A stretch of DNA of 64,000 bases from Escherichia coli (GCF_024223415.1 NZ_CP100500.1), one strand, 5' to 3'. Shown: positions 33,720-56,636, counted from the first letter of the stretch. Notes: generated by a model not told the origin, from the sequence alone. Program-made: numbers and translations.

Positions 33720-35867
<2,148 letters not shown>

Positions 35868-35919: not shown

Positions 35920-36678
35920 TCAGAAAAGAGAAGATTGCTGTGGAATAGCCGGAACTGCTCCGATCTCTGGAAGCGTTTTACGTAAGTCTTCCCACAGGGT
36001 ATGTACCAGTTCCGGTGCCTGGGCAATGTCTGGCGTATGTAAAAAAAGATAAGGCGTAGTGGTCTGATGCCACTGCGCTAATTTCTGTAACCAGACCTGA
36101 AATAATTCCCGGTTTTGCGTCATATCATCACTACCGATAAAACGGATCAGCGGATTTGTCGCCGTCAGTACAGCATGTACCGGAACTTTAGGTTTTTTTC
36201 GTTGAGCGTCGCGAATAGCTTCACTGTGTGGACGTGCTGCATGAACCGGGCGGCTGTCTAAAATCACCCGATTAACGCCGCGCTGATGTAAACCGCGATT
36301 AAGCGTTTGTTCCTCTTCCCCTTTGGCGAAAAACTGTGGATGGCGGACTTCCACACCATAATTAAATTCGCCAGGGAGAGAATCGAGAAAATGCCAAAGC
36401 GCAGGCAGCTCCCGTGGGCCGAATGTGGCAGGCAGTTGCAGCCAGTATTGCCCAATGCGCGGAGCCAACGGTGACATGCGGGTCAAAAATTCAGTCACTA
36501 AATCATCGCAATGTCGTAATGCTGCCTGATGCGAAATGGTCGCCGGAAACTTAAAACAGAAGCGGAAGTCATCTGTGGTCTGTTCACGCCAGCGCAGGAC
36601 AACCTCGGGTTTCGGCAGGGCGTAAAGCGTGGTGTTGCCCTCCACGCAGTTAACATGACGGGTATTGAAGGCTAACAC
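35920..36678 (-). CDS. yecE: YecE (DUF72) with 5' end altered by prophage insertion
   Basis: Matches YecE from ...NCVEGNTTLYALPKPEVVLRWREQ onward; N-terminus begins at a GTG overlapping the integrase stop; a decayed, stop-interrupted partial copy of the yecE 5' sequence lies upstream. Confidence 0.7.
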   Translation of the reverse strand: MLAFNTRHVNCVEGNTTLYALPKPEVVLRWREQTTDDFRFCFKFPATISHQAALRHCDDLVTEFLTRMSPLAPRIGQYWLQLPATFGPRELPALWHFLDSLPGEFNYGVEVRHPQFFAKGEEEQTLNRGLHQRGVNRVILDSRPVHAARPHSEAIRDAQRKKPKVPVHAVLTATNPLIRFIGSDDMTQNRELFQVWLQKLAQWHQTTTPYLFLHTPDIAQAPELVHTLWEDLRKTLPEIGAVPAIPQQSSLF

Positions 36679-37985
36679 ACTGATTTTAATAAGTTTCTTG
36701 TGTCACTTTGGTGACCATGGGACATCATTGGGACATAATCTGCCAGCTTCTGATTCAGCATTGCGATCTGTTCTGCATTACTGTCAGTCATCCATGCTCC
36801 GTATACATTGAACACCATCTGGGCACTTGCATGGCCCATCTGGCTGGCAATGAAGCTTGGGTTTGCTCCGGCAGATAATGACCAGCACGCATAAGTGTGT
36901 CGTGACTGGTATGCTTTCCGGTGCCTGATGCCCGCACGCTTAATGGCTGTTTCCCATGAGTCGCCAATAGAATCTACCTTGTAGATAAAACCGACCTGTT
37001 TGCTTTTTCTAACCACCTGGGGGTTAAATACGAAAGTACATTCATGGTTCACTGTACGTCCATATTCACGTAGTTGAACCTTGATGTGGTGCTGCTTACC
37101 CAGTCTTGTCATTTCAGCCTGATTTTTCAGGACACTGATAGCGGGCTGGATAAGATGCACAACCCTGTTTGTACTTGCTTCAGTTTTAGGTAGAGTGAAC
37201 TCACCGAGTTTCGTATAATTGCGCCTGATAGTAATTGTTCCTGCTTTCAGATCGATATCTTCCCAGGCCAGGGAGACCAGTTCACCATGACGCATTCCTG
37301 TGTACACAGCCAATGACCACAGGTTTTTCGTCTGCTGATGTCGGCAAGCATCTATCAGGCGAATAAATTCGTCACGAGTTAGCGGATCTGGCTCTGCCCT
37401 GGCTCTTTTAAGAGGCTTAATTCCCTGGAAGGGATTTGCTTCTAAGTAACCGTGATCTGCAGCAAACTGAAACATTCCAGCGATTGTCGTCATGTAATAA
37501 TTTACAGTAACGACGCTCCGTCCTTTTGCTGCTGCTTTGTTTTTCGTTGAATTCTGGTACCCGGTCAGCAAATCTTTCCTGATATACAGCAATTCCTCTT
37601 TAGTTACCGATGACACCAGTCTGCTGCCTCCAATTTTCGGAACCATCGTTCTTGCAACGGATTCATAGCGATTGAATGCATTTGCAGAGATCTCCATTCG
37701 TTTCAGATCCAGCCACTTTTCTTCAAGTTCCTTCACCGTAATTTCTTTTTTACTTACCCCAAAAGCCTGAAGGTTAGGGGAGTCAGGGAACTGTGCAGCA
37801 TAATCAAAGCTTCCTGTGCGGATGGCAAAACATACCGATGTCCGCAGTTCCCCGGCGATCTTCCTGTTCTTGGCAGTGTCAGGGACACCAAGATTTTCCC
37901 TGACACGTTTACCTTTAAAATTAAACCAGATGCGTAATGTGCCGCCGTGGTTTTCGACGCCTGTTGGATATTTGACTTTATCCAT
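36672..37985 (-). CDS. Phage tyrosine integrase
   Basis: 437 aa with tyrosine-recombinase C-terminal region (HASAQMVFNVYGAWM); stop adjoins yecE junction. Confidence 0.9.
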   Translation of the reverse strand: MDKVKYPTGVENHGGTLRIWFNFKGKRVRENLGVPDTAKNRKIAGELRTSVCFAIRTGSFDYAAQFPDSPNLQAFGVSKKEITVKELEEKWLDLKRMEISANAFNRYESVARTMVPKIGGSRLVSSVTKEELLYIRKDLLTGYQNSTKNKAAAKGRSVVTVNYYMTTIAGMFQFAADHGYLEANPFQGIKPLKRARAEPDPLTRDEFIRLIDACRHQQTKNLWSLAVYTGMRHGELVSLAWEDIDLKAGTITIRRNYTKLGEFTLPKTEASTNRVVHLIQPAISVLKNQAEMTRLGKQHHIKVQLREYGRTVNHECTFVFNPQVVRKSKQVGFIYKVDSIGDSWETAIKRAGIRHRKAYQSRHTYACWSLSAGANPSFIASQMGHASAQMVFNVYGAWMTDSNAEQIAMLNQKLADYVPMMSHGHQSDTRNLLKSVC

Positions 37986-38040
37986 TGATACCTCCAGACG
38001 CCCAAGAGCGATACGAGCTTACATACTTCATGGCATTAAA

Positions 38041-38277
38041 TCACCCAGGTTGTTTGTTTTTCATTGAAGCGACCCAGGCATCTATTGCTTTTCTGTTATA
38101 CATACATTCACTGGAAGGCTTTGGATTACCGTCTGGTGATACGTGAATATACTCTCTTCCAACCATCCAGCATTCTTTCCGGGCCCGAAGAATTGTGCCT
38201 GGTTTGAGCCCGGTAATTGCGATTAGAACGCTTTCACAAACCCATTCATTGGGAGCCAGTTGAATCACATTGCCCAT
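38041..38277 (-). CDS. Putative excisionase
   Basis: 78-aa ORF immediately upstream of int on the same strand. Confidence 0.55.
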   Translation of the reverse strand: MGNVIQLAPNEWVCESVLIAITGLKPGTILRARKECWMVGREYIHVSPDGNPKPSSECMYNRKAIDAWVASMKNKQPG

Positions 38278-38285
38278 GCATTACC

Positions 38286-38432
38286 TCACACAACACTCAG
38301 CCCACGGCAGTGGCACCACACTTCAAACATTCGTTTCACAATTTCACGACAGTAGAAACCGTCAACATCTCGTGTCAGGTCATAGCGATTGCCGTAACGC
38401 TGGTGGACCCATTGTTCAAATGCTTTATTCAT
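38286..38432 (-). CDS. Hypothetical small phage protein (48 aa)
   Basis: Hand-translated: MNKAFEQWVHQRYGNRYDLTRDVDGFYCREIVKRMFEVWCHCRGLSVV; below ORF-track cutoff. Confidence 0.35.
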   Translation of the reverse strand: MNKAFEQWVHQRYGNRYDLTRDVDGFYCREIVKRMFEVWCHCRGLSVV

Positions 38433-38435
38433 TCT

Positions 38436-38678
38436 TTACTTCCTTTTCATGGCCCGTAATTTTTTCAGATGAGTTTCCTGTTCTGTTTCTGCCAGAATTT
38501 GTCGGTATTCCTGATGATCGAGCCGTTCAAACGTTTCATTAAAATCGTTTATTTTTACCGACTGTGTTCGCCCATCCATTCTTCTGTACAACACGGTGTT
38601 ATTTATGCAGCGAATAATTTTTACCGGGTAACCGGCACTGTCGGTATACAGTTGTCCCTGATTAATCAAAGCGAACAT
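38436..38678 (-). CDS. Hypothetical phage protein (about 80 aa from internal ATG)
   Basis: MFALINQGQLYTDSAGYPVKIIRCINN...; start uncertain (track ORF extends to 38801). Confidence 0.4.
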   Translation of the reverse strand: MFALINQGQLYTDSAGYPVKIIRCINNTVLYRRMDGRTQSVKINDFNETFERLDHQEYRQILAETEQETHLKKLRAMKRK

Positions 38679-38709
38679 TTTTTCTCCTGCTCTCTGAATA
38701 GTGAGAACT

Positions 38710-39075
38710 TCAGAGTCGTATGTTTGTAGCGGGTTCAATGCTGATGATTTCTGCTGAGATAAGCATCCCGGCCAGCCAGAGCTCTCCGGACAGGTTTTCA
38801 TCCTTGCATTCCAGTCCGCCGATATTAATGGTGGCTATGATATCGCGCTTATCCTCGACTTCTTCATAAGGCAGCGTTGCGTACAGGCTTTCAATAGCGC
38901 AACTGATAACATCCAGTCCGGTCAGATTGCCGCCGACAGTGACTTCGAATGTTTCGCGGTATTCCCATAGCCCGAAAGTTAATCGAACGGTTTGTTTTGC
39001 CATGCGCCCGCATGACGTCAGATTCGGGTCATAGTTCATTATTTGCGGTTGAGTATTCTGGGCGTTCATCTGCAT
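38710..39075 (-). CDS. Hypothetical phage protein (121 aa)
   Basis: MQMNAQNTQPQIMNYDPNLTSCGRMAKQTVRLTFGLWEY...; follows SPFH gene in the same operon. Confidence 0.45.
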   Translation of the reverse strand: MQMNAQNTQPQIMNYDPNLTSCGRMAKQTVRLTFGLWEYRETFEVTVGGNLTGLDVISCAIESLYATLPYEEVEDKRDIIATINIGGLECKDENLSGELWLAGMLISAEIISIEPATNIRL

Positions 39076-39109
39076 TTCCCTTAGCCCGGCGGCCTGCCGG
39101 GCGTATAAG

Positions 39110-39937
39110 TTATTTAACCTGGATAAATGGTGTATTAGCACCGCTGGTCATGTATTGCGGCAGTGTGCCGTTCCATTTATTGATGGCTTCCAGCTCCATA
39201 ACGCCGGGGTTCTGACGCAGAGCTTCACCGCGTAAACGAATAGCATCAGCTTCGGCCTGGGCTTTTGTGCGAATCGCATCAGCCTGTCCGGCAGCTTCTG
39301 CGCGCAACATATTGGCTTCCGCTTCGCGCTGTTTTACTTCCTGCTCGCGCTGCAGTGTTTTCTGGTTCGCCGTGACTTTGGCATTAATGCTGTCGATAAC
39401 TGTTGGCGGGTACTCCGGCTTACCCACATATGAGAGGCTCATTACCTGAATACCGATAGGTGTCATCTCTGCCTGAATGTCTTTAAGAGCTTCATCCAGC
39501 AGCTCAGACTTGCCGCCGTCGATAAATTTGTCAGTGGTCATTTTGCTGGCCAGTCGGTTGAGTGCGTCGGCGATCTTCTGGCGCAGGTCAGTGTCGGTAA
39601 TGTCATCCACGCCTTTGCGGTAGGTCTGAAACACCGTGGTAACTTTGGATGGATCAACTTTGTAGGCCACGCCAATGTGATAGCCGATGGTTGTACCGTC
39701 ACTCATCTGGAAACTGAACGGTTCATCGTAGGTCTTCATTTGTTTGAAGGTGGGGAAGATATAAACTTCAGTATTCCAGCCAGTCCAGTAGCGACCAACA
39801 CCGACCACCTCACCGACGCCTTTGTCGTCGCCCAGTTTATTTACCTTGATGCCAACATTACCTGGTTCAACGCGATCGCAACCGACAAGGCCAATAGTCG
39901 GCAGAACAATGGCTAAAGCAAAAATAATTTTTTTCAT
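39110..39937 (-). CDS. SPFH/band-7 (HflK/C, stomatin, prohibitin-like) domain lipoprotein
   Basis: 275 aa; signal peptide with lipobox LVGC; SPFH-type core followed by a long Ala/Glu/Arg/Gln-rich segment of the kind seen in flotillin-like proteins. Confidence 0.7.
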   Translation of the reverse strand: MKKIIFALAIVLPTIGLVGCDRVEPGNVGIKVNKLGDDKGVGEVVGVGRYWTGWNTEVYIFPTFKQMKTYDEPFSFQMSDGTTIGYHIGVAYKVDPSKVTTVFQTYRKGVDDITDTDLRQKIADALNRLASKMTTDKFIDGGKSELLDEALKDIQAEMTPIGIQVMSLSYVGKPEYPPTVIDSINAKVTANQKTLQREQEVKQREAEANMLRAEAAGQADAIRTKAQAEADAIRLRGEALRQNPGVMELEAINKWNGTLPQYMTSGANTPFIQVK

Positions 39938-40122
39938 CTTTTATCCTTAGTGAAAGAAAGACCCTTGTAAATGGCATAAATGCAGGGCGGGGTCAGAAAC
40001 GCCAGTGCAAAGCCAGAAATAACTGCTATCGTATCCTTCATGGATATAAGGAACGGAACGAGTAATCCGTAAATGCATGCGATAATTGCCAGTAAAATTA
40101 CTATTGTGAAATACAGTCTCAT
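39934..40122 (-). CDS. Small two-TM membrane protein translationally coupled to SPFH gene
   Basis: 62 aa, two hydrophobic helices; stop overlaps SPFH start codon in an ATGA arrangement. Confidence 0.5.
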   Translation of the reverse strand: MRLYFTIVILLAIIACIYGLLVPFLISMKDTIAVISGFALAFLTPPCIYAIYKGLSFTKDKR

Positions 40123-40298
40123 TGGTCTGTGGTATCCCGATATTTTTAACCGACTGACAGCGCAATAAAGAGAATAATGATTTCTGTTAGTGTCAGCACT
40201 GTGGCAAGGATTAAAATCAGTTTTACTCTGTTTAATTCACGGTTGCTTTTCATATAAACGGTTAGTAAAAAACGGAAGAATTATTTTCTTCTTAATAT

Positions 40299-40880
40299 TT
40301 AATGTGTCACTGGCGCTTCTGGCATACCATGAGTATTCAGGTCGTGAATCATTTCATCCAGAAGGAGTTCAAGCCCTTCGCGCCCCATAGCAGAGAGAAT
40401 GAAACCATTATCAGGATCTGCGATGAGCATTTTTTGATAGAGAAACAGAACTCGCCCCATGCCTTCAGTTTCGCCATATTTTTCAATAAATCCCCATTCG
40501 ACATGGTTTTGCAGGGCAATGCGAAGTGGTCCTGGGTATATACTTATGCAACCATGTTTCCCCTTGTAAATAACTGCGCGATCTGTCGTCCCGTTATCGT
40601 TAGGGATATCAATAGTGCCGTTCTTGTCTTCCTCTTCACTGATAAACTTCATCACATACAGCCAGCGCCACTGAGCAACCTTCAGATCGACTGAAAATCT
40701 TCCCAGCAATCCGGCATCATCAGCTTCGGCAAGACATTGCATGATTCTTAAACCGTGCCAGTATGGATTATCGAATTCGCCATCATTAAGCCGCTGTACG
40801 GCCTGAATATAATCAATGGTTGTATTACCAATTTTTATGCCATGTGGCGTTACTTCTGGTCGGAACTCTGAATGATTCAT
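40299..40880 (-). CDS. Hypothetical phage protein (about 193 aa from ATG at 40880)
   Basis: MNHSEFRPEVTPHGIKIGNTTIDYIQ...; no recognisable motif; ATGA overlap with upstream 67-aa ORF. Confidence 0.5.
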   Translation of the reverse strand: MNHSEFRPEVTPHGIKIGNTTIDYIQAVQRLNDGEFDNPYWHGLRIMQCLAEADDAGLLGRFSVDLKVAQWRWLYVMKFISEEEDKNGTIDIPNDNGTTDRAVIYKGKHGCISIYPGPLRIALQNHVEWGFIEKYGETEGMGRVLFLYQKMLIADPDNGFILSAMGREGLELLLDEMIHDLNTHGMPEAPVTH

Positions 40881-41080
40881 AATATTTGCTCCTTTGCTGG
40901 TGGAATAATCGTGTAGCCAGCTCTTTTTGCCATCCACAGAAATGTATCCATGCAGCCAACGAATTCATTATCCAGCAGATGTTTTGAGTAAATTACTTCA
41001 CCATTTTCAATGGTTAGCAACACTCTTACTTTTTTATGTGTTATGTTTTGTTGTTTTTCTTCCATTGACTTATCTCCCAT
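40877..41080 (-). CDS. Hypothetical small protein (67 aa) coupled to downstream gene
   Basis: MGDKSMEEKQQNITHKKVRVLLTIENGEVIY...; 4-nt overlap with next gene. Confidence 0.45.
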   Translation of the reverse strand: MGDKSMEEKQQNITHKKVRVLLTIENGEVIYSKHLLDNEFVGCMDTFLWMAKRAGYTIIPPAKEQIL

Positions 41081-41261
41081 ATGCTTTGCGCAAATACAGG
41101 TTGGCTATATGAAGATAAGAATCTCCATGTTGTGCAATGAGGCAGGCAGTTTTATACGATGCCTTATGTTTCAGGAAAGTCATAACATAATCTCCTGCGA
41201 ATAAAGGTTGCAACAATCCCCGGCGATAAAACCGTAATAAACATTCAGGGAATATTTATTG

Positions 41262-41627
41262 TTATTGCGCTAATTCTTTTTCGGCAGCAGATTTTGCATA
41301 TTCACATGCAAAATTCAGAATTTCGCTGCCAAGTGTTTTTGTTTCGTGATTACTGGACATATGTAATACCTGTGTTGCATGCAATAAATGATAAACATTT
41401 ACCGCAAATGAGTCCGGCTCCAGACAAATGCCTTCATAATCATCTTGTTGTGAGGTTGTTTCTGTCATTGCTCCTGAAGTGCATGCGAGCCTGTTTTTGA
41501 CAATTCTCTTTCCTCTAATCACTATATCGGCAACATCTATTGCCTTTACAACCTCCGGGAGAAGTTCCGGGTTTGTATAATCAAAGTCATCAACATGGAG
41601 AACAGTTATGTTTTCGAACTTTTTCAT
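41262..41627 (-). CDS. Hypothetical acidic phage protein (121 aa)
   Basis: MKKFENITVLHVDDFDYTNPELLPEVV...; second gene downstream of cI. Confidence 0.5.
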   Translation of the reverse strand: MKKFENITVLHVDDFDYTNPELLPEVVKAIDVADIVIRGKRIVKNRLACTSGAMTETTSQQDDYEGICLEPDSFAVNVYHLLHATQVLHMSSNHETKTLGSEILNFACEYAKSAAEKELAQ

Positions 41628-41755
41628 GGCTTCCTCAGCTGACTTATATGTTCTGCTATATAGCGAGTCTCAGAAGTGTTTTCATATTGAGACTGTTTCC
41701 GCAATGATTGATAAAAATGTTCGCATGTACCTTGAGGGGCGAAGCGGCGATTATG

Positions 41756-55688: not shown

Positions 55689-56309
55689 CCATTACAAAGC
55701 CTATCTACGGGTGGGCTTGATAATGAAACCAGAATTTATTCTGGGAAACCAGTTACGGCAGTACAGCGAAACAACCCAAGCCAGTAAGTGGGGAAATAAC
55801 ACTGGCAGCCACTGAAAGATGAACCTCCTGCCTTATGGCAAAAAAGATTCTTTGTGGTGGCGGACTGATGGAAAGACATCGGTTATTGCAGAGACCATTC
55901 AATGAGTGGTCTCGACAATGGCTTATACCCTACACGGGATAACTTAACTGATATCCCTTTTAACGGATAAAGGTATTCAAGCCTGACATATCATGCGCTG
56001 TATCGTCGCCGTATTCCCGTATTAACAGAGACCGTAGCCCGACGGGGAACTCCTTCTGCGCGAGTGTGCGGGAATAATCAAAAACGATGCACACCGGGTT
56101 TTTACCGCGTTTATGGTTCGCGGGTTTGTCCCTCATGCTCGCCAGTCCGGTGCGATGGTGGAAGAAACCGGAAGCTGTATTACAGAAAGTGCTACTACTG
56201 TATCCTGATGCGATGTATGTAATGTGAGTCAGATAATGGCACAGGATGTGGTGATGTGGCAGTCTGGAACACAGGATATATTGTCAGAATAAGACCCGTA
56301 GGAATAAAA

Positions 56310-56636
56310 ATGAAAAGACGCCTTTCACTACTTTTTCTGTTATCTGCCCTGGCAGTGGGATGCTCGCAGCAAAAAGCTGATGAGCCCCGGCAATTAGTGA
56401 CGGTGTATCCACGATATCCGGAATATGCTGCAGCAAATTATATCAAGGGGCTGGTTGAGGTTAAGTTCGATATTGGTGCTGACGGGACTGTGACACGGAT
56501 CGTTTTTCTCCGCTCAGAGCCTCATAATTTGTTTCGTGATGAAGTGGTGAAGGCCATGGCGAAATGGAGATTTGAAAAGAATAGTCCCCGTCAGGGAGTG
56601 AAGAGACAATTTATCTTTACGCCATCACGTCCCTGA
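56310..56636 (+). CDS. Lipoprotein with TonB C-terminal-like domain (moron candidate)
   Basis: ATG at 56310: MKRRLSLLFLLSALAVGCSQQ...; C-terminal YPRYPEYAAANYIKGLVEVKFDIGADGTVTRIVFLRSEPHNLFRDEVVKAMAKWRFE fits TonB_C pattern. Confidence 0.6.
   Translation: MKRRLSLLFLLSALAVGCSQQKADEPRQLVTVYPRYPEYAAANYIKGLVEVKFDIGADGTVTRIVFLRSEPHNLFRDEVVKAMAKWRFEKNSPRQGVKRQFIFTPSRP

Follow-up and report, generated by a model that had tools for sequence, protein, structure and literature searches.

The 64,000-nucleotide stretch of the Escherichia coli genome analysed here (GCF_024223415.1, NZ_CP100500.1; referred to as the window in the following) contains one end of a lambdoid prophage that interrupts yecE, and we consider it very probable that this arrangement arose through ordinary tyrosine-recombinase integration of a non-Stx phage at a known attB site, which split the gene. 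A preliminary description, based on the sequence, had proposed a prophage at yecE with an attachment site within the gene, and this is what we find: the integrase gene adjoins the 3' part of yecE. It had also named yecE as a reported phage integration site, including for Stx phages, which is borne out by the records of phiP27 and 297-type phages and by the literature, where an att of 21 bp at yecE has been described, together with secondary attB sequences that derive from yecE and lie within other prophages (Nakamura et al. 2021, PMC8112680), and where a review lists yecE among the integration sites of Stx phages (PMC8065619). Accordingly annotated att sites at yecE are found in the records of phiP27, phage 297/EH297, phage 258-320 and many O145:H28 prophages with Stx1a, Stx2a or Stx2d. 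This kind of junction is already known and has been documented since phiP27 and phage 297; among complete E. coli genomes, an integrase of this family abuts the truncated yecE in 489 of 5,426 (~9%), where a genome was counted as occupied if the match extended over 80% or more of a 1.2-kb probe.

The gene order on the host side of the junction, in which yecN is the next gene after cmoA in the window, matches the K-12 order cmoB-cmoA-yecN-yecE-yecD. Compared with the intact gene in prophage-free E. coli, the host-derived 3' part of yecE shows 98.7-99.7% identity. The features at and around the junction are compiled in Table 1.

Table 1. Features of the yecE/prophage junction and its surroundings, with positions counted from the first nucleotide of the window.
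Feature	Position	Strand	Remarks
cmoB	33720-34691	-	
cmoA	34688-35431	-	
Hybrid ORF yecE'	35920-36678	-	252 aa; the first 9 codons, beginning with GTG, come from the phage, the rest is yecE (codon 29 onwards)
yecE 3' part, host-derived	35920-36642	-	codons 33-272 and stop; aligned to K-12
att core TTAACTGCGTG	36643-36653	-	yecE codons F29-V32; makes this junction attL; equals the 11-bp attL/attR of phiP27
Phage-derived 18 nt, core to int stop	36654-36671	-	includes left core-flank CCCGTCAT, 8/12 identity to attB near the core
Lambdoid prophage, left end to window edge	36654-64000	.	attR outside the window
Tyrosine integrase, phiP27 type	36672-37985	-	437 aa; by Pfam, PHROG integrase and aa identity
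Arm-type-like repeat ATGTCCCA	36718-36725	-	position -72 from core; putative function
Arm-type-like repeat ATGTCCCA	36729-36736	-	position -83 from core; putative function
Excisionase	38041-38277	-	78 aa; phrog_539, E = 7e-40

The extent of the att core follows from a comparison with the prophage-free locus, which the preliminary description had suggested for this purpose. Identity between the window and K-12 begins exactly at TTAACTGCGTG and continues through the remainder of yecE, so that the core comprises 11 bp in codons 29-32 of the gene. The GenBank record of phiP27 begins at this very base, and the same 11 bp are annotated there as attL (1-11) and attR (42565-42575); it is this annotation that defines the att sites of phiP27. 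Within the window, the core occurs once, and the canonical 5' end of yecE was found neither upstream of position 36678, in agreement with the preliminary description, nor anywhere else in a search allowing 3 mismatches. Therefore, attR would lie beyond the window edge.

What such a far end looks like can be seen in strain CFIAFB20180540, whose genome matches the window at 99.6% identity over the junction. Here, the far end of the prophage reads yecD, yecE codons 1-28 and T-TTAACTGCGTG-ACACGGCTATTTTAAAAATCAC..., such that a phiP27-like right arm follows the core; the first 32 yecE codons are intact and the core is identical. The matching direct repeat that had been predicted for the other end of the prophage is thus present in a genome that shares this junction, while the repeat in the window itself, that of attL, matches the core of attB, of attP and of phiP27. 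An uninterrupted attP, in which the 3' end of int, the core and the other arm are contiguous, is found in phage CharmingMan and in two viral contigs from IMG/VR. The latter were retrieved with a degenerate attP pattern; neither the exact phiP27-type attP nor its GTG variant (see below) had a match in a scan of IMG/VR. Taken together, attB, attP, attL and attR are consistent with a simple reciprocal crossover within the 11-bp core. In strains AVS0171 and TUM1886, the attL core is TTAACTGTGTG instead of TTAACTGCGTG. This is either an allelic difference in yecE or a variant phage core, and it could help to place the points of strand exchange.

The genes next to the junction form an integration module. 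Residues 202-395 of the integrase (Int) match Phage_integrase (PF00589, E = 9e-18), and the protein is assigned to the PHROG integrase family phrog_1 (E = 2e-86), which at the level of these domains identifies it as a tyrosine recombinase with its catalytic domain. At its N-terminus, it carries an Arm-DNA-bind_2 domain (PF12167, E = 2e-23). Int can be aligned to its phiP27 counterpart over the full 437 aa, without gaps and with 97% identity, and it is 76% identical to that of EH297; the close match to phiP27 Int, combined with the core TTAACTGCGTG in yecE, marks the phage as a yecE-integrating phage of the phiP27 type. An excisionase gene lies beside int, as in other integration modules of the lambda family.

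The module also includes short repeats. NTG(T/C)CCCA motifs occur in pairs with 11-bp spacing at -83/-72, +127/+138 and +168/+179 from the core, where the first pair is the one in the window and the other two lie in the other arm of phiP27 and CharmingMan. The offsets of these pairs are equal to within 1 nt in the two phages, which are only ~80% identical, and the -72 motif is found at the identical offset in both of their attP sites. Since Int has an arm-binding domain, the TG(T/C)CCCA repeats are most simply read as its arm-type sites. An arm-type DNA-binding domain and repeated attP motifs are both present, and we would expect the one to bind the other. Closer to the crossover, attB shows an 8-bp inverted repeat, CCCGCCAC / GTGGAGGG (7/8), around TTTAACTGC, and at the corresponding positions attP has an imperfect inverted repeat, CCCGTCAT / GTGAC(A/G)CG (5-6/8). 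Core-type half-sites, to which Int would presumably bind, are expected to look like this.

These elements suggest the following course of events. The attP of a phage with a phiP27-type module, consisting of an arm-binding Int and Xis, would recombine with attB at the 11-bp core TTAACTGCGTG. This would split yecE, such that its 3' 240 codons and the core come to lie beside int as attL, in the window, while the 5' 28 codons and the core are carried to the far end as attR, outside the window and still behind yecD. For the prophage in question, we infer an attR of the form ...GAAGAGTATGCCCGCCACT-TTAACTGCGTG-ACACGG(C/G)..., with codons 1-28 of yecE on its host side and yecD behind them. On the phage side of attL, only the 12 nt beside the core resemble yecE (8/12 identities in the window and 7-9/12 across three phage types), presumably because attP and attB must offer similar core-type half-sites to Int. 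The extension of the reading frame into the phage and the GTG codon over the int stop would then be by-products; int ends 18 nt from the core, and the GTG stems from a private single-nucleotide exchange.

The closest known relative of this module is that of phiP27 (AJ298298 / NC_003356), which has the same xis, core and position in yecE, and whose first 5.1 kb are 97% identical on the DNA level (5,084 bp, 36643-41714 in the window). However, phiP27 carries stx2e whereas the window carries no such gene, the remainder of the prophage is a mosaic with lambda-like terminase, portal and protease, and only the window has a single-nucleotide exchange at position 36677. The 297/EH297-type phages and the O145:H28 Stx prophages (AJ431361, LC5678xx) likewise target yecE and share the order xis-int-att-yecE', and the EH297 type also has paired TG(T/C)CCCA repeats in the 3' end of int. 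Yet, their att is annotated with 19-21 bp, their int ends 57 nt rather than 18 nt from the core, their phage-derived frame extension is a different one, and many of them carry stx. Phage 21 and e14, which integrate at icd, resemble the prophage in the window in having a lambda-family integrase and a target within a protein-coding gene, but they differ in what happens to this gene: at icd, the 3' end is duplicated and the length of the ORF remains unchanged, whereas yecE is disrupted by prophage integration (Bobay et al., PMC3603311); here, the gene gains 9-13 unrelated codons without a conserved start or N-terminal motif. With lambda itself, the prophage shares an arm-binding Int, the location of xis upstream of int, the transcription of int towards attP and a short core between repeat-bearing arms. 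Unlike in lambda, the arm repeats on the int side are part of the coding sequence of int, integration takes place within a gene, and the sites have been deduced from sequence.

Beyond the integration module, the prophage encodes a cI-like repressor, an anti-repressor, a replication initiator (O), DnaC-like and DnaB-like proteins, an HNH endonuclease, a Q antiterminator, tRNA-Met and tRNA-Lys, an endolysin and Rz, as well as packaging functions, namely the small and large terminase subunits, portal and head protease. It is covered to 66% at best by any complete E. coli genome and to 39% at best by any phage record. In Stx phages, tRNAs are found at this place downstream of Q, followed by stx. 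In the window, tRNA-Met (CAT) and tRNA-Lys (TTT) are indeed located downstream of Q (52686-52839, + strand), and stxA and stxB do not follow them; we found no stx in the window, and tblastn searches with the A and B subunits of phiP27 Stx2e gave no significant match there. Instead, the interval from Q to the lysis genes holds the two tRNAs and a porin pseudogene. The latter, an OmpF/OmpC/NmpC-like gene between Q (50365-50802) and the tRNAs (50981-52086, - strand), has an in-frame stop just past the signal peptide (MKNLTVALSAVAASVFLATSSNAA*IYNKD...) and is, judging by this stop, probably non-functional. Further downstream, a small ORF (56256-56636, + strand) combines a lipoprotein-like signal (…LSALAVGCSQ) with a TonB_C domain (Pfam E = 5e-13) and bears the PHROGs family label 'Rz-like spanin'; situated between the lysis and packaging modules, it is probably a moron gene. 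A PADLOC analysis of the accessory ORFs of the prophage returned generic HTH matches only. In CFIAFB20180540, the prophage at yecE spans only 23.3 kb between the cores. IS2/IS3 elements have inserted into it and its lysis and tail genes are truncated, which makes it a decaying remnant, although it retains both att repeats.

This raises the question of whether the prophage in the window is itself a remnant with just one genuine junction, whose far end was lost by deletion or rearrangement together with the 5' end of yecE and perhaps yecD, leaving the element fixed and yecE permanently destroyed. The absence of attR from the window would fit this view, as would the frequent degradation of related prophages at this site, exemplified by the reduced size and the IS insertions in CFIAFB20180540, and the pseudogenization of the porin gene. 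Against it stand int and xis, which are both of full length, the former (437 aa) without a gap relative to phiP27 Int, and the early, replication, lysis and head genes, all of which are found before the window edge and seem to be intact. We therefore regard such a loss as rather unlikely.

Under the preferred reading, an ordinary integration that split yecE, the gene loses a conserved part of its product. Among 42 homologues with 34-62% identity to K-12 YecE, 15 alignment columns are invariant, and five of these fall in residues 1-28, i.e. in the displaced segment (G5, W9, W14, L22 and Y25), which aligns to the N-terminal segment of a solved DUF72 structure (1VPY). The hybrid ORF begins at the equivalent of residue 21 and is unrelated to YecE up to residue 26; it lacks G5, W9, W14 and Y25, matches L22 only coincidentally, and accordingly does not contain a complete DUF72 domain. 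This conservation indicates that the displaced 28 residues are not dispensable, and it makes an insertional inactivation of yecE, reversible on excision, the most likely outcome. The 5' fragment at attR would encode a peptide of 36 aa. A literature search on the function of DUF72/YecE found nothing relevant.

The truncation is easily overlooked. In a comparison with the NCBIfam model PRK10302, the hybrid ORF covers only model positions 25-272, but it obtains 491 bits against a cutoff of 412, and because its score exceeds this cutoff, PGAP calls it an intact DUF72 protein. In RefSeq, split yecE genes at three loci (L002 of strain CFIAFB20180540, 20021-20791; L007 of AVS0171, 221-991; L009 of TUM1886, 907-1677) are annotated as intact 256-aa 'DUF72 domain-containing protein' or 'yecE', with an ATT codon as the start. 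A further database protein, P0001, has an unrelated N-terminus of 75 aa fused to YecE residues 33-215, with the fusion point at the att core; it may be one more hybrid of prophage and yecE, or else a chimera of the assembly. Several YecE homologues, P0013, P0105 and P0119 among them, start with MEGN..., that is, at the GTG of V32 in the att core. One of these shares only 37% identity with E. coli YecE, which hints at similar splits, or at miscalled starts, in other species.

The preliminary description had gone further and assumed that the phage replaces the N-terminal coding sequence of yecE with a substitute 5' end, and that a decayed, stop-interrupted copy of this end lies upstream in the same frame. 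Its observations at the junction are accurate: the int stop codon (TAG, 36672-36674) and the start of the yecE'-containing ORF (GTG, 36676-36678) are so close that the two ORFs overlap by 7 nt, and the N-terminus starting from this GTG (VLAFNTRHVNCVEG...) differs from the canonical one, as K-12 YecE (272 aa) has ...SLEEYARHFNCVEG... at the same point. In its strongest form, the idea is that attP carries a diverged 5' end of yecE and that integration rebuilds a functional gene, much as phage 21 and e14 do with the 3' end of icd. Several points speak in its favor: no stop interrupts the frame in the 13 codons that precede the core, with a GTG there in this window; codons R27-H28 and N30-V32 are retained in all phage variants; and the hybrid is, as mentioned, called intact above the NCBIfam cutoff. 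Nevertheless, we consider it very unlikely.

First, the start codon is private to the window. It owes its existence to the exchange at 36677 (G to T on the - strand), which replaces GGG by GTG and gives Int a final Cys instead of Gly. In a search with a 41-nt probe centred on the T, this variant was found in 0 of 5,426 complete E. coli genomes, and in IMG/VR it was not found either, while GGG, the commonest close variant, is present in 52 of the 5,426. In most of the other junction variants (phiP27, CFIAFB20180540, AVS0171, TUM1886, CharmingMan and those from IMG/VR), the stretch from the preceding in-frame stop to the core contains no ATG, GTG or TTG; EH297-type phages alone have a GTG, which is located 30 codons upstream, within int. 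Moreover, a promoter and terminator scan around the junction gave counts equal to those in shuffled sequences; between int and yecE', the minus strand showed nothing resembling a promoter, and the hybrid ORF has no visible Shine-Dalgarno sequence.

Second, the phage arm does not look like yecE. Beyond the 12 nt next to the core, a local gapped alignment of the arm (nt -13 to -120) with nt 1-72 of yecE is at chance level (p ~0.35), and the in-register identity over -13 to -84 amounts to 22/72 (range 22-24/72), compared to 17.6 +/- 3.6 in shuffles (p = 0.14; 0.06-0.15). This in-register identity lies a little over the mean of the shuffles, and phage arm and yecE might, formally, share a very distant origin. 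As for the decayed copy, a string PWSPK* does exist in frame (36703-36720), but its derivation from yecE does not hold up: besides the chance-level similarity, the string is not conserved, with a stop in place of its W codon in phiP27, APKHT in CharmingMan and CPIEPD in EH297. We consequently rejected this candidate, as the region is explained by Int coding and arm-type repeats; it lies inside the int coding sequence, where the Int frame reads ...YVPMMSHGHQSD..., and the P codon of PWSPK overlaps the ATGTCCCA repeat closer to the core.

Third, the hybrid lacks four invariant residues, as described above, and yecE has been scored as disrupted rather than end-duplicated (PMC3603311). Neither a yecE homologue in the phage arm nor a full-length ORF, the hallmarks of an attP that reconstitutes its target gene, is found. 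With a start that is a private exchange, without a promoter-like site above chance and without the invariant residues, the phage-supplied 5' end is largely refuted. The N-terminal coding sequence is not replaced but displaced, as codons 1-32 are intact at the far end of the prophage in the same-junction genome.

Two further readings concern the activity of the locus. The overlap between the int stop and the yecE' start (GTGTGTTAG) could serve functional translational coupling, by which a truncated DUF72 protein would be made along with Int; 7 nt is a geometry that allows coupling, but this is hardly credible with a start codon that is a private exchange, an int that ends 57 nt from the core in EH297-type phages, and a product that lacks the conserved N-terminal residues. 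It is similarly far-fetched that the private GTG might permit such an int-coupled truncated protein as one facet of a more general role of the prophage as a reversible yecE switch, in the sense of active lysogeny, with excision restoring yecE upon induction.

For our understanding of E. coli biology, the junction described here carries little weight, as the yecE site has long been documented and ~9% of the complete genomes are occupied. Its significance is of a more practical nature. The annotation of the hybrid as an intact DUF72 protein hides the disruption of yecE in pangenome and core-genome analyses. Furthermore, since a phiP27-type module is found here on a non-Stx lambdoid mosaic, the occupancy of yecE is no marker of a Stx phage.
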